The notes beneath the pieces were generated by a model. The model had not been told where the DNA came from. It did no database searches and saw nothing but the letters and a program-made list of their open reading frames with translations. Shown piece by piece: positions 9,390-12,325 of a stretch of DNA of 58,330 nt (positions are counted from its first letter, which is position 1; each line of letters opens with the position of its first letter). This DNA is from Planctomycetaceae bacterium (GTDB lineage: Bacteria; Planctomycetota; Planctomycetia; Pirellulales; UBA1268). Location: NCBI GenBank assembly GCA_040376455.1, contig JBEIQP010000003.1, positions 1 to 58,330 of the forward strand, written 5' to 3'. A program made the position numbers and the translations under genes.

Positions 9390-10064
9390 ATGTCTTCACC
9401 GAAGCCGTCGGCACGGCTCACGACTTGGTGCGCGATCATCGGCTACTCGCTCGTGGCCTCGGGGCTTCCGCTGCCGCTCGGCGGTGGTGCGGCGGGCGGT
9501 GGCCGCGCCGACGCGGCGGTCGCCAAACGGCTGGCGGCCAAGGATCGCACGCAGCCGTTCCCCTGCATGGACAAGCCCTGCGGCTGCGCCACGGCCGAGC
9601 AGTGCTTCACGAAGTGCTGCTGCAACACGCCCGCGGAGACGCTCGCCTGGGCCCGGGCCCGGGCCGTCGAGCCGGCCCTGCTGGCGGCCCTCGAACGCCG
9701 CGCGGGGGCAGGGCCGTCGCCACGGGCCGACGCCGCTGAAGCCGCCTCCTGCTACAGCGATGCGGCCGAGGCCTCCTGCTGCTCCCGCGAGGCCGCGGCG
9801 ACGAGTTGCTGCGCCGCCCCGGAGGCGCCGCCGGAGCCGGCGCCCGAACCGGCGCCCGAGCCGCCGGGCCGTCGCGTGGTGCTCCGCGCCATGCTGGCCT
9901 GCGGCGGGATCCTCGCGCAGTGGTGCGGCGCCTGCGGATCCTTGCCGCCCCCGCCGGTCGTGACGGCGCTGCCGCTGCCGCTCGTCGAGGCGCTCGTCCT
10001 CGACGACCACACATCCGAGTGCCATCGCGCGTCTCCCGACGCGCCACCTCCGCGCGTGGCCTGA
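9390..10064 (+). CDS. Cys-rich hypothetical protein with N-terminal hydrophobic segment and C-terminal polyproline tail (candidate regulatory upstream ORF)
   Basis: 17 Cys including [23 protein letters not shown] and WCGAC. Ends [10 protein letters not shown]. Confidence 0.7.
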
Positions 10065-10209
10065 GCTGGTTTTGGTTTGCCAGCCTGCCGGGGCGGCCGG
10101 GGTTCGTGCCCGCCGCCACCGTGGTCCGCGCCGTCTGCCGGCGCTCGCGCATCGGGTGCGAACGCGGCAGGCCGTGCGCCGTGCGCGCCTCGCATCACCG
10201 GAAGTCACC

Positions 10210-11433
10210 ATGAAGGAAGATCCGTTCGACGTCGGCTATCTGTCGAGCAAGCACCTCGTCCAGGGCGTGGACGACGCCCCGCCCATCGAGTTCCTCGACG
10301 ACATCGATCCCACGCCGCTCGACCCGACGCCGCCAGACGCCCCGCCGGGGGCGAACCGCGGCTTCACGCTCGTGGAGTTGCTCGTCGTGATCGCGATCAT
10401 CGGCGTGCTGCTGGGAATGCTGCTGCCCGCCGTGCAGTCGGCCCGCGACGCGGCCCGCCGCACGGCGTGCCTGAGCAATCTCCGCCAACTGTCGTTCGCG
10501 CTGTTGAATTACGAACTGGCCCGGCGGGCCTTCCCGCCCACCGATCTGCCCGGCGGCTTTTCGATCCAGGCCCGCCTCCTGCCCTACATGGAGGAAGCCG
10601 CCCTGCACGGGCTGCTCGACTTCACGGCGACCGCGACATCGACCACCTTCAACGCCCAGCGGCCGGCCCCCCGGTTCGCGGCGGCCTTCGCCACGCCGAT
10701 CCCGGTGCTGCTGTGCCCGGGCGACCCGGCGCCGGCGGTGACGACCGTGACGACCGTGGCTGGCGGGCCGTTCGACGTCGCCGGGCTCAACTACATGGTG
10801 AGCATGGGATCGGGCACGGGCACGTTCTACGATCAGCGCTGGCCCACCGACGGCATCGTCCACGAGCAGTCCCGGGTGCGGCTGTCGCAGGTCACCGACG
10901 GCTGTTCGCGGACCGTGTTCCTCAGCGAGACCGTGCGGAGCACCGGCGCCGACAGCACGCCCGGCACCGGGGTCGCTCCCCCGTTTCCCTATCAGAAGAC
11001 CCTCAACGGCTCGACCGGAGTCGCCAGCGCCAAACAGGCGACGCCCGGCTACGCCGCCACCGGCAGCCCCTGGTCGGCCGCGGCGGCGGGCGGCGTCATC
11101 CGCGATCCCGACCTCGAGGCGCTCTGGCCGCAGGTCGCCTCGCCCACGTGGCGCGGCGCCAACACGAACACGCTGCGCGGCCGCGGCTCGTCGTGGGCGA
11201 CGACGGGCGCGGCCAACACCCTCACCAACGGCTACCTCACGCCCAACAGCCGGACTCCGGACGTGATCATCCACGCCACGGGGTTCTTCGGTCCGCGGAG
11301 CCACCACCGGGGCGGCGCGACGGTCGCCTTCGGCGATGGATCGGCGCGGCTGTTGTCCGATGCGATCGACGCCTCCGTGCACCGCAGCCTCCACAGCCGC
11401 AACGGCGGCGAGGCGGTGGCCGAGGATCCGTGA
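10210..11433 (+). CDS. DUF1559 prepilin-type N-terminal cleavage/methylation domain protein
   Basis: [59 protein letters not shown]-terminal H-X9-DG ([12 protein letters not shown]). Confidence 0.95.
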
Positions 11434-11509
11434 CCGTGACCCGACCCCGCCGCCGATCTCCCCGCCCGCGTCATTCCCGGACCGCCTTCCCCCGAGAGCC
11501 CTGCAAACC

Positions 11510-12325
11510 ATGAACCTGAAGCCCCGCTCGCTCCGCGCCCTCCTGCCGTTGGTCTGCCTGCCCGTCGCGGTCGTCGCCGGCGTCGGCGCCGCCCACGACA
11601 CCTGGGTGCAGACGGCGGCGACGCTCGTTCGTCCCGACGATGTCGTGCACGTGGACCTGGTGCTGGGCAACCACGGCAACGACCATCGCGACTTCAAGAT
11701 CGCCGGCAAGCTCGGCTCGCTCGAGGGCGTCTCGCTGGCGGTGCTCGGCCCGGGCGGCCGGAAGACCGACCTCGTGCCCGACCTCGTCGATCTGGGCTAC
11801 GCGCCCAAGGAGGGCTTCTGGTCCGCCCGGTTCGTCGCCGCCGACGAGGGGTTGCACTGCATCGCGCACACCCGCGAGGGGGTGCGTCATGCGAGTCGTG
11901 GAATCAAGAGCGCGAAGGCGTACTTCCTCGCGACGCCGGCGCTCGACAAGGCCCCGGCACCGACGCAGGAGTTCGCGGAGCCGCTCGGGCATCCGCTGGA
12001 ACTCGTTGTGGAGACCCACCCTGTCTTGGACTGCGGGCCGGGCCGACCGATCGCGGTGCGGCTCCTGTGGCGCGGAAAACCCCTGGCCGACCACCGGGTG
12101 TCGTTCATCCCCCGCGGCGCCACGTTGAAGGAGGGCTTCGATCCCGAGTACGAACGGCACACCGATGCCGCGGGCCGCTGCACCTACACGCCGGCCGAGG
12201 GCACCTTCATCCTCGTCGTCGCCCATCGGATCGAGGCCGACGAGAAGGGGGAGGGGTTCGACAAGACGTCGTACAGCGCCACGCTCGTCCTCAACGTGCC
12301 GCAGCGATGCGCGTGCTGCGACTGA
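11510..12325 (+). CDS. DUF4198 family periplasmic protein (NikM/CbiL-associated metal-uptake type)
   Basis: Signal peptide then AHDTW, GNHGNDH, AKAY, PLGHPLELV, GKPLA, TDAAG, YSATL. Ends RCACCD. Confidence 0.85.
   Translation: MNLKPRSLRALLPLVCLPVAVVAGVGAAHDTWVQTAATLVRPDDVVHVDLVLGNHGNDHRDFKIAGKLGSLEGVSLAVLGPGGRKTDLVPDLVDLGYAPKEGFWSARFVAADEGLHCIAHTREGVRHASRGIKSAKAYFLATPALDKAPAPTQEFAEPLGHPLELVVETHPVLDCGPGRPIAVRLLWRGKPLADHRVSFIPRGATLKEGFDPEYERHTDAAGRCTYTPAEGTFILVVAHRIEADEKGEGFDKTSYSATLVLNVPQRCACCD

Follow-up and report, generated by a model that had tools for sequence, protein, structure and literature searches.

We analysed a 58,330-nucleotide (nt) stretch of DNA from a Planctomycetaceae bacterium of the order Pirellulales (assembly GCA_040376455.1, contig JBEIQP010000003.1; hereafter the window), in which three co-oriented genes lie on the + strand between positions 9390 and 12325, in a region of about 72% G+C. 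The first open reading frame, ORF1 (9390-10064), encodes a Cys-rich protein of 224 amino acids (aa) that belongs to an unnamed Planctomycetota family. ORF2 (10210-11433) encodes a DUF1559 prepilin-type protein matched by both Pfam and NCBIfam profiles, and ORF3 (11510-12325) a periplasmic DUF4198 (PF10670) protein, assigned by a Pfam match and predicted to bind metal. The original prediction had described this cluster as a planctomycete version of the metal-responsive modules headed by DUF2946-type upstream ORFs, such as Bordetella CruR and Rhodobacter CutF, with a DUF1559 protein in the slot of the receptor. The features it listed were all found in the sequence at these positions: ORF1 starts with a hydrophobic segment, contains 17 Cys and ends in APPPRVA-TGA, and ORF3 has a mature N-terminal His (AA-HDTW), the motif LGNHGNDH and a C-terminal RCACCD.

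Profile scans with Pfam and NCBIfam assigned no family to ORF1. Of 8000 candidates scored in a word-indexed search, 647 were relatives at E ≤ 0.01; the 120 top-ranking ones measured 207-283 aa, and all those named by their source were labelled 'hypothetical'. A profile search of 1.84 billion representatives recovered 1758 clusters at E ≤ 1e-3, 1058 of them at E ≤ 1e-10. With hundreds of relatives, 1758 clusters and an invariant C-terminal tail, ORF1 is a real gene and not a chance frame. Its family was detected in 17 of 401 sampled genomes of the phylum, including both genomes of a sister family in the same order (2/2) and 10 of 20 from one family of the same class; elsewhere in the phylum, 4 of 259 genomes gave hits, with weak scores. 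Several complete sister-family genomes carry the cluster as such. A protein-language-model search of a protein atlas returned unnamed Planctomycetota clusters only, apart from three named rows (DUF6769, DUF8199 and DUF6660, score 0.84-0.85) that we treat as leads only.

The Cys residues of ORF1 are arranged as C59-x4-C64-x-C66, C76C77C78, two CC pairs and a CGAC. Among 71 diverse members of the family, 24-52% identical to the window protein, the invariant positions were C59, C64, G65, C66, C72, C76, C77, C78, C171, G173 and P219-P221. In the AlphaFold model, a helix (residues 6-23) precedes a domain spanning residues 40-110 with a pLDDT of 86-96; a linker modelled at low confidence then leads to a second helix (residues 165-181) and a C-terminal coil of moderate pLDDT (64-79). 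The folded Cys-rich core (residues 56-90; 9555-9659, + strand), which reads PFPC-x4-CGC-x5-C-x3-CCC-TP-E-L-W and holds seven invariant Cys, was modelled with a pLDDT of 94-96. The N-terminal hydrophobic helix (9405-9458, + strand) is membrane-like, with a family median of 1.86 for the best 19-aa Kyte-Doolittle window and a net charge of +2.9 before the helix, and is predicted to be a signal anchor or uncleaved signal in N-in orientation. The segment around the second helix (residues 163-189; 9876-9956, + strand) is only marginally hydrophobic (family median 1.15) and contains the invariant C171-x-G173 and W178, followed by LPPP(P). A Foldseek comparison of the model with the PDB gave no match at E ≤ 0.001. 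ORF1 had been called a leader ORF; it is no short leader peptide but a conserved protein of full size, with a domain whose fold is modelled confidently. Two ORF1 copies (L015 6001-6459 and L052 6001-6228) are interrupted by an in-frame TAG with the downstream DUF1559 gene intact, and could be pseudogenes, assembly errors or cases of read-through.

Conservation of the proline tail, the cysteine spacing and the gene order

The window protein ends in P219 P220 P221 R222 V A stop (10044-10064, + strand; CCA CCT CCG CGC GTG GCC TGA), a candidate ribosome-pausing motif. The P-P-P-R tail was invariant in 31/31 aligned relatives and the three prolines in 71/71 diverse members. Within a broader set of 265 members, defined by the CxxCCC motif, 230 carried a final PPP[RK], which was followed by one or two residues in 184 of the 230 and by seven or fewer in 222; the 35 members without it were mostly fragments, or variants such as PPPE, PPPQ and RPPR. 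Similarly, most of 78 genomic copies ended in PPPR plus one or two residues, the exceptions being KRPPR, PTPR and PPPK endings, the two copies cut by TAG and two that run off their contigs. The expectation that homologues would keep the Cys motifs and the terminal PPP-R was thus borne out across the family, with PPP in 71/71 members and the seven domain Cys and C171 invariant. The CxxC motif fared less well: it is present in the window protein as CGAC at residues 179-182 and is not conserved in relatives.

The distance between the conserved Cys and the proline tail was nearly constant. Counted from the residue equivalent to C171, the first Pro of PPPR comes 48-49 aa later in 210 of 225 members, across a stretch whose sequence is poorly conserved. 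An additional polyproline run precedes the tail in the window protein, LPPPP at residues 185-189 (9942-9956), 34 residues before the PPP at 219-221 (10044-10052), and this LPP is also nearly invariant across the family. The spacing from LPP(P) to PPPR was 34-36 aa in 172/193 members, and the same range was found in 32 of the 37 LPP-bearing members of a more distant subset. A distance of 34 residues approximates the length of the ribosomal exit tunnel.

Gene order was compared first among close relatives, a set of 77 loci (80 ORF1 copies) from species-representative genomes, all of them metagenome-assembled genomes labelled Pirellulales, Planctomycetia or similar. A DUF1559 gene followed ORF1 in 73 of the 80 copies: in 57 it starts no more than 500 nt away, and in 16 a single gene intervenes. 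One copy had room downstream yet no DUF1559 match, and the remainder run off contigs. Where DUF1559 was adjacent and 2 kb or more of sequence lay downstream, DUF4198 came next in 39 of 46 cases. The order also recurs in independent lineages. At 17 distant loci from other families (G+C 44-74%), a prepilin gene was next in 15, starting 75-572 nt past the ORF1 stop, and all 15 of these tested with Pfam were DUF1559 genes. Four distant loci carry DUF4198: it stands straight after DUF1559 in L113 and, each time with AhpC/TSA next, in L101 and L116; in L102 it is preceded by a second DUF1559 gene and another gene. The third gene encodes PepSY_TM in four distant loci and a PQQ_2 beta-propeller in six. 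The proposed DUF1559 neighbour was therefore retained in near and distant relatives alike (73/80 and 15/17), whereas DUF4198 as the third gene held for the close cases and only in part beyond them, where DUF4198, PepSY_TM or a PQQ propeller occupies that place. The DUF4198 and PepSY_TM third genes mirror the proteobacterial operons that run from DUF2946 through a TonB receptor to PepSY_TM.

A paralogous order, which we call type B, comprises ORF1, a secreted 225-aa protein without a Pfam family, DUF1559, a small lipoprotein and DJ-1/PfpI. It was seen in L024 (6001-10295) and also in L027, L028, L036, L041 and L047, the DJ-1/PfpI coming with TPR. A divergent cobW/COG0523 GTPase gene lies upstream in L024 only; as a clue to zinc, this neighbour was dropped because it occurs at that single locus.

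The position of the proline motif near the C-terminus, at about tunnel length behind a hydrophobic segment (34-36 aa from LPPP in 172/193), also fits a different idea: ORF1 could be a monitoring substrate of the SecM/MifM/VemP kind, whose pause would report Sec/YidC or prepilin-processing capacity and not metal. That the next gene encodes an exported prepilin-type protein is in line with this. We nevertheless consider it very improbable, because the genes downstream encode DUF1559, DUF4198, PepSY_TM and PQQ propeller proteins and none encodes Sec, YidC or a prepilin peptidase, and because the eight invariant Cys and the metal-related partner genes point to a ligand. The searches for such arrest peptides described in bioRxiv 10.1101/2023.09.02.556018 target Sec/YidC loci.

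In the window, the cluster is flanked upstream by a NIF3 gene on the minus strand and a xylose-isomerase-like TIM-barrel gene ending at 9324, and downstream by a convergent RsmE gene ending at 12345 and then an AAA_22 ATPase gene. The convergent RsmE gene and the separate NIF3 and TIM-barrel genes bound the unit to the three genes, which very probably constitute one functional module. Another contig of the same assembly (C84; L002, 1-1800) ends in a second locus with NIF3, TIM-barrel and ORF1 genes, the neighbours being 72% identical and ORF1 54-58% identical to those of the window. This points to a bin that combines two related organisms (contamination 4.44%) and not to a paralogue.

Expression signals and the DUF1559 and DUF4198 partners

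A promoter-like site precedes ORF1 at 9354-9382 on the + strand (TTGACC, 17 nt, TACGAT; one site against 0.1 expected), and its -10 element ends 7 nt before the ATG. We compared 74 unique upstream regions, from window 9354-9392 and loci L003-L079. TAnnnT ended 6-8 nt before the ORF1 ATG in 61 of the 74, against 17 of 1472 random ATGs (1.2%), and a Shine-Dalgarno (SD)-like motif was found in only three. The -10 element lies so close to the start codon that the ORF1 mRNA of this clade is probably leaderless. In the sister family, at least two relatives instead carry a GGGAGG Shine-Dalgarno ahead of ORF1.

ORF1 and ORF2 are separated by 145 nt (10065-10209, + strand), a candidate site for attenuation or for control of translation initiation. 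In 30 relatives the spacer had a median length of 137 nt (43-234) and C exceeded G in 27, a composition expected of Rho-loading sites. An RNA switch at the spacer or the stop codon was considered and rejected, as shuffles, minimum free energy (MFE) folds and hairpin tests revealed no conserved structure; by a loose definition, a hairpin at the ORF1 stop was found in 68/84 cases and in 57-64% of controls, with no separation between them.

ORF2 is a clear member of DUF1559. It matched PF07596 with 149.6 bits (E 2.3e-43; cut-off 23.3) and N_methyl with 32.3 bits, as well as TIGR04294, which describes the H-X9-DG C-terminus (21.8 bits; cut-off 19), and TIGR02532 (31 bits), so that the profile, the N-terminal cleavage and methylation motif and the H-X9-DG element are all present. 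The cleavage and methylation motif, G-FTLVELL, was read on the translation (nt 10354-10425, + strand). It is preceded by an acidic leader of 50 aa (MKEDPFDV...PPGANRG; window 10210-10362), whereas the DUF1559 leaders of relatives are mostly about 7-25 aa long and many are basic; among those examined only L073 was similar. An in-frame GTG at 10264 is a possible alternative start. The AlphaFold model (pLDDT 85.2, pTM 0.79) has a helix at residues 54-105 followed by strands, and its best PDB matches were all type IV pilins or pseudopilins, at weak scores (Z 3-4.5; Foldseek E ≥ 0.7). The solute-binding-protein fold evoked by the Pfam short name SBP_bac_10 was discarded, no such PDB match being found and the weak pilin matches appearing instead.

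DUF1559 is described as the largest paralogue group in Planctopirus limnophila, with 68 copies and unknown function (PMC10632474). We counted 59-142 copies in four complete genomes and 20 in the assembly that contains the window (87.5% complete). No PF00593 TonB barrel was found in this 87.5% complete assembly; of five complete ORF1-bearing genomes, four had none and one had a single copy. One complete genome (6.8 Mb, 115 DUF1559 copies) had a prepilin/DUF1559 gene on the same strand, no more than 3.4 kb upstream, at 4/4 full-length PepSY_TM genes, and three of these four loci had no ORF1-like gene. A 20-kb locus (L123; G156:C1:4591500-4611400) contains two prepilin/DUF1559 genes, three PepSY_TM matches and DUF4198 (E 1e-52) without an ORF1-like gene, and is a possible metal-uptake island. 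The literature searched, whose coverage was incomplete, yielded no link between DUF1559 and metals. We consider the arguments for a role of this DUF1559 protein in metal acquisition to be evenly balanced with those against.

ORF3 matched PF10670 with 81.6 bits (cut-off 34). Its signal peptide (11510-11593, + strand; cleavage site judged by eye) is followed by the mature N-terminal His29 (11594-11596), by GNHGNDH (11666-11686) and, at the C-terminus, by RCACCD (12305-12322), all on the + strand and read on the translation. In 21/21 aligned orthologues the signal peptide ended in (A/G)-HDTW and H29, H55, H59 and H120 were invariant; most of them end in RCxCC. The ORF3 profile reached PDB entries 9mhi-9mho at E 1e-4 over residues 143-195 only (about 50 residues), a range too limited to equate the ORF3 His residues with the three Zn-binding His of Zcp. 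Two DUF4198 proteins have been characterised: the Neisseria gonorrhoeae protein Zcp, regulated by Zur, is a periplasmic dimer that binds zinc (PMC12663993), and IsDUF4198 from Ideonella sakaiensis uses its N-terminal His to bind nickel (Kd 18 nM), DUF4198 genes being reported to adjoin TonB receptors and NikR (PMC12537917).

These partners bear on whether the cluster has anything to do with metal. DUF1559 with a transthyretin-like or lipoprotein gene downstream could form a generic planctomycete surface or uptake module, in which ORF1 would be one accessory membrane protein among many and the likeness to CruR and CutF would be coincidental. The large number of DUF1559 copies per genome (20-142), mostly unlinked to ORF1, would fit such a module, as would the type B loci, with a secreted protein and a small lipoprotein in place of DUF4198, the PQQ propeller partners, which have no established metal role, and the cobW/COG0523 gene confined to one locus. 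We regard it as unlikely. DUF4198 has been established experimentally as metal-binding and its metal-ligand His residues are invariant here; PepSY_TM, AhpC/TSA and DUF4198 are the partners reported for DUF2946/TonB-receptor metal loci; genuine DUF2946 genes of the same phylum also precede DUF1559 genes; and ORF1 itself has eight invariant Cys.

The last-mentioned DUF2946 genes were identified among 21 DUF2946-like Planctomycetota loci, 18 of which encode an R(A/G)PP-type tail. A prepilin-type gene was next in 5 of these 18; by Pfam, two of the five were full DUF1559 matches, one was partial and one matched N_methyl only, the fifth being recognised by its motif only. In 11 of the remaining 13, an unannotated open frame of 407-491 aa came next. 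Frames of this kind, in which Pfam recognised nothing at E ≤ 1e-4, were noted over loci L129, L132, L135-L138, L140, L143, L144 and L147-L149, and most of them extend to about 50 nt or less from where the retrieved sequence ends. As a partner of CruR-like genes, this frame may deserve attention.

A candidate nascent-chain metal sensor

Genuine DUF2946 proteins, above the Pfam cut-off, were present in 16 of the 401 genomes of the phylum. They carry CxxC and, further on, R(A/G)PP followed by 2-7 residues, and the Arg follows the first Cys at a distance of 47-52 aa in 17/17 proteins, with a mode of 48. In Bordetella CruR, CXXC occupies residues 90-93 and RAPP residues 139-142, three residues before the end, which places the first Cys 49 residues from the Arg (PMC9426467). 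The same source reports that the spacing between Cys and RAPP varies by no more than one or two residues across more than 2000 sequences and that an insertion of five residues impairs regulation. It describes DUF2946 genes at the head of operons with TonB-dependent transporters and/or PepSY_TM, and also with AhpC_TSA, YcnI, CopC and others, and notes long intergenic distances. CutF is reported to stall on a C-terminal PPP (bioRxiv 10.1101/2025.02.05.636593), and a figure legend of the CutF paper lists a 'PILIN' signal class among downstream proteins (PMC9973294).

ORF1 gave no match to the DUF2946 profile PF11162 at E ≤ 0.1, and none of 31 family members matched it at E ≤ 10. A genome-wide PF11162 search placed no match on ORF1, and hhalign comparison with 17 planctomycete DUF2946 proteins returned probabilities of 1.7% (full length) and 0.1% (last 72 aa). 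On these results ORF1 was rejected as a DUF2946 homologue, and the assignment to the DUF2946 type by sequence falls. As far as can be read from its sequence, ORF1 nonetheless has the defining architecture of DUF2946 sensors, though no homologue of them is detectable: it shares a C-proximal proline motif, a fixed Cys spacing, an N-terminal anchor and the position of first gene before a long spacer. At the position equivalent to the DUF2946 CXXC, only C171-x-G173 is invariant in the ORF1 family. The idea of a planctomycete counterpart of CruR and CutF with DUF1559 in the receptor slot thus survives in the tail, the 48-49-aa spacing, the gene order and the partners, and fails in DUF2946 homology, CxxC, RAPP and size.

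The explanation that we favour is that of a three-gene operon handling extracytoplasmic metal in a lineage with few or no TonB-dependent receptors; for the mechanism in full, a CruR/CutF-like cis-acting nascent-chain sensor with DUF1559 and DUF4198 as cargo, we see roughly an equal chance that it is right or wrong. ORF1 would be a cis-acting sensor of the CruR/CutF kind that gained a larger Cys-rich exported domain. The ribosome would pause on PPP-R just as the Cys-bearing segment clears the exit tunnel. How long it dwells at the ORF end would depend on the state of the exported Cys-rich part, which may be bound to metal, or free or oxidised. This dwell time would set downstream expression via the spacer of about 145 nt, by Rho-dependent termination or by start-site access. 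The regulated cargo would consist of the DUF1559 and DUF4198 genes, with the DUF1559 protein standing in the slot of the proteobacterial TonB-dependent receptor.

Several observations weigh against this explanation. ORF1 has no detectable DUF2946 homology, no conserved CxxC and no RAPP, and the comparison of its Cys-to-PPP distance with that of DUF2946 was made post hoc. PPP alone is normally rescued by EF-P. The codon CCT was enriched twofold at the PPP positions (24% vs 12%), a modest effect that we do not use as evidence. The charges flanking the second helix fix no topology and its hydrophobicity is slight. The window's own spacer has as much C as G and folds no better than shuffled sequences (z 0.45); MFE folds of the spacers of 30 relatives had no common structure; only some of the MFE folds paired the PPP codons with the downstream SD; and a strict hairpin, of at least 7 bp and abutting the stop, was enriched yet found in only 13/83 cases, vs 4% of controls. 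The counts from close relatives are not independent, since these are mostly one orthologous locus in which the flanking NIF3, TIM-barrel, RsmE and AAA_22 genes are conserved as well. For the cargo, the pilin-fold Z-scores of ORF2 are low, and only one or two of the 20-142 DUF1559 copies in a genome adjoin an ORF1-family gene. Finally, with 200-250 aa and a confident domain, ORF1 resembles a stable functional protein and not merely a throw-away sensor.

This last point leads to an alternative that we judge to be a realistic if minority possibility: ORF1 would be a stable partner, structural or catalytic, of the uptake machinery, for instance a membrane-anchored periplasmic Cys-rich metal chaperone, metal sensor or thiol-redox protein acting together with DUF1559, and PPPR would serve protein-protein docking or processing and not a translational pause. 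The domain modelled at a pLDDT of 86-96 with its seven invariant Cys, the length of 200-250 aa kept across 1758 clusters, the pLDDT of 64-79 in the C-terminal tail and the lack of a conserved RNA switch in our tests all agree with a stable partner. So does the constancy of DUF1559 while DUF4198, PepSY_TM and the PQQ propeller vary, which would fit a physical ORF1-DUF1559 pair. Such a role leaves unexplained, however, why the motif lies one or two residues from the stop (184/230), why the Cys-PPP distance is fixed at 48-49 aa over a variable stretch and matches that of DUF2946, and why a long spacer precedes the next gene. No fused or longer forms of ORF1 were scored in the search, which is weak evidence against a stable partner. 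A stable role and a regulatory role may also coexist.

The sensor explanation can be taken one step further, and here we are tentative, regarding the extended version as possible and on the doubtful side. The ORF1 family would be a counterpart of CruR and CutF that evolved independently, or a branch that diverged beyond recognition, and would use the same 48-residue ruler between Cys and proline. Its DUF1559 cargo would substitute for TonB receptors as a pilus or pseudopilus device that captures metal or a chelate at or beyond the outer membrane and passes it to DUF4198 or PepSY_TM proteins of the periplasm.

The principle of a nascent-chain metal sensor is already known for DUF2946. In the literature searched we did not find the ORF1 family as a candidate for such a sensor, the 48-residue ruler in a non-homologous family, or DUF1559 consistently in the place of the TonB receptor; planctomycete pilin-type cases may already stand in Table S1 of PMC9426467 or in the tables of PMC9973294 on signal peptides and the sequence similarity network. 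Through this cluster, a definable subset of DUF1559 is linked to metal-binding or metal-processing partners and to a leader gene built like CruR and CutF. Were the favoured explanation true, these pilin-like proteins would acquire a concrete role in organisms largely without TonB-dependent receptors. To our knowledge, the CruR/CutF kind are the only sensors of extracytoplasmic metal that act through ribosome stalling, and ORF1 would add a second, non-homologous protein family to this form of regulation. The spacing from Cys to arrest motif would then be a transferable design rule, usable to search for further sensors. If DUF1559 does substitute for the TonB receptor, a first function would be available for part of the largest paralogous family of the phylum.

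Comparison with CruR, CutF and known DUF4198 proteins

CruR (Bp2923 of Bordetella pertussis, DUF2946/PF11162) is a copper-responsive upstream ORF, and ORF1 likewise stands first in a cluster with metal-related genes. In both, the N-terminus carries an export signal or N-in anchor, the proline motif close to the C-terminus sits one to three residues from the stop and has a conserved Cys about 48-49 residues ahead of it, and a long spacer leads to the next gene (162 nt for CruR, 145 nt for ORF1). PepSY_TM and AhpC/TSA are found downstream of ORF1 relatives as they are downstream of CruR relatives. The two differ in the motif itself, which is PPP-R in ORF1 and RAPP in CruR, and in the conserved Cys, a single invariant residue (C-x-G) in ORF1 against the CXXC of CruR. 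An additional folded domain at the N-terminus, about 110 aa with seven invariant Cys, makes ORF1 about twice as long as CruR, and ORF1 is followed by a DUF1559 pilin-like gene in the place of the TonB-dependent transporter gene.

In CutF (Rhodobacter capsulatus, DUF2946), copper-induced stalling at the C-terminal PPP opens a stem-loop masking cutO's ribosome-binding site. With its C-terminal PPP and neighbouring positive residue, the ORF1 motif is of the CutF type, and the two proteins also have in common several Cys in the exported part and membrane or Sec targeting. A further likeness, for ORF1 by proposal only, would be that the ribosome is coupled to the state of the exported Cys. CutF is fully secreted and about 90 aa long when mature, whereas ORF1 is twice the size of CutF and has a folded domain. 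The stem-loop over the SD is essential in CutF, and none was found in the ORF1-DUF1559 spacer; the gene downstream encodes a multicopper oxidase in one case and DUF1559 in the other.

Compared with DUF1559 proteins at large, the subset to which ORF2 belongs is set apart by its association with an ORF1-family gene and metal-related partners, and ORF2 by its long acidic leader. ORF3 resembles Zcp and IsDUF4198 in its signal peptide, its N-terminal His and its further invariant His residues. It differs from them in the C-terminal RCxCC tail present in most orthologues, and its locus differs from theirs in that the DUF4198 gene is paired with DUF1559 instead of a TonB receptor.

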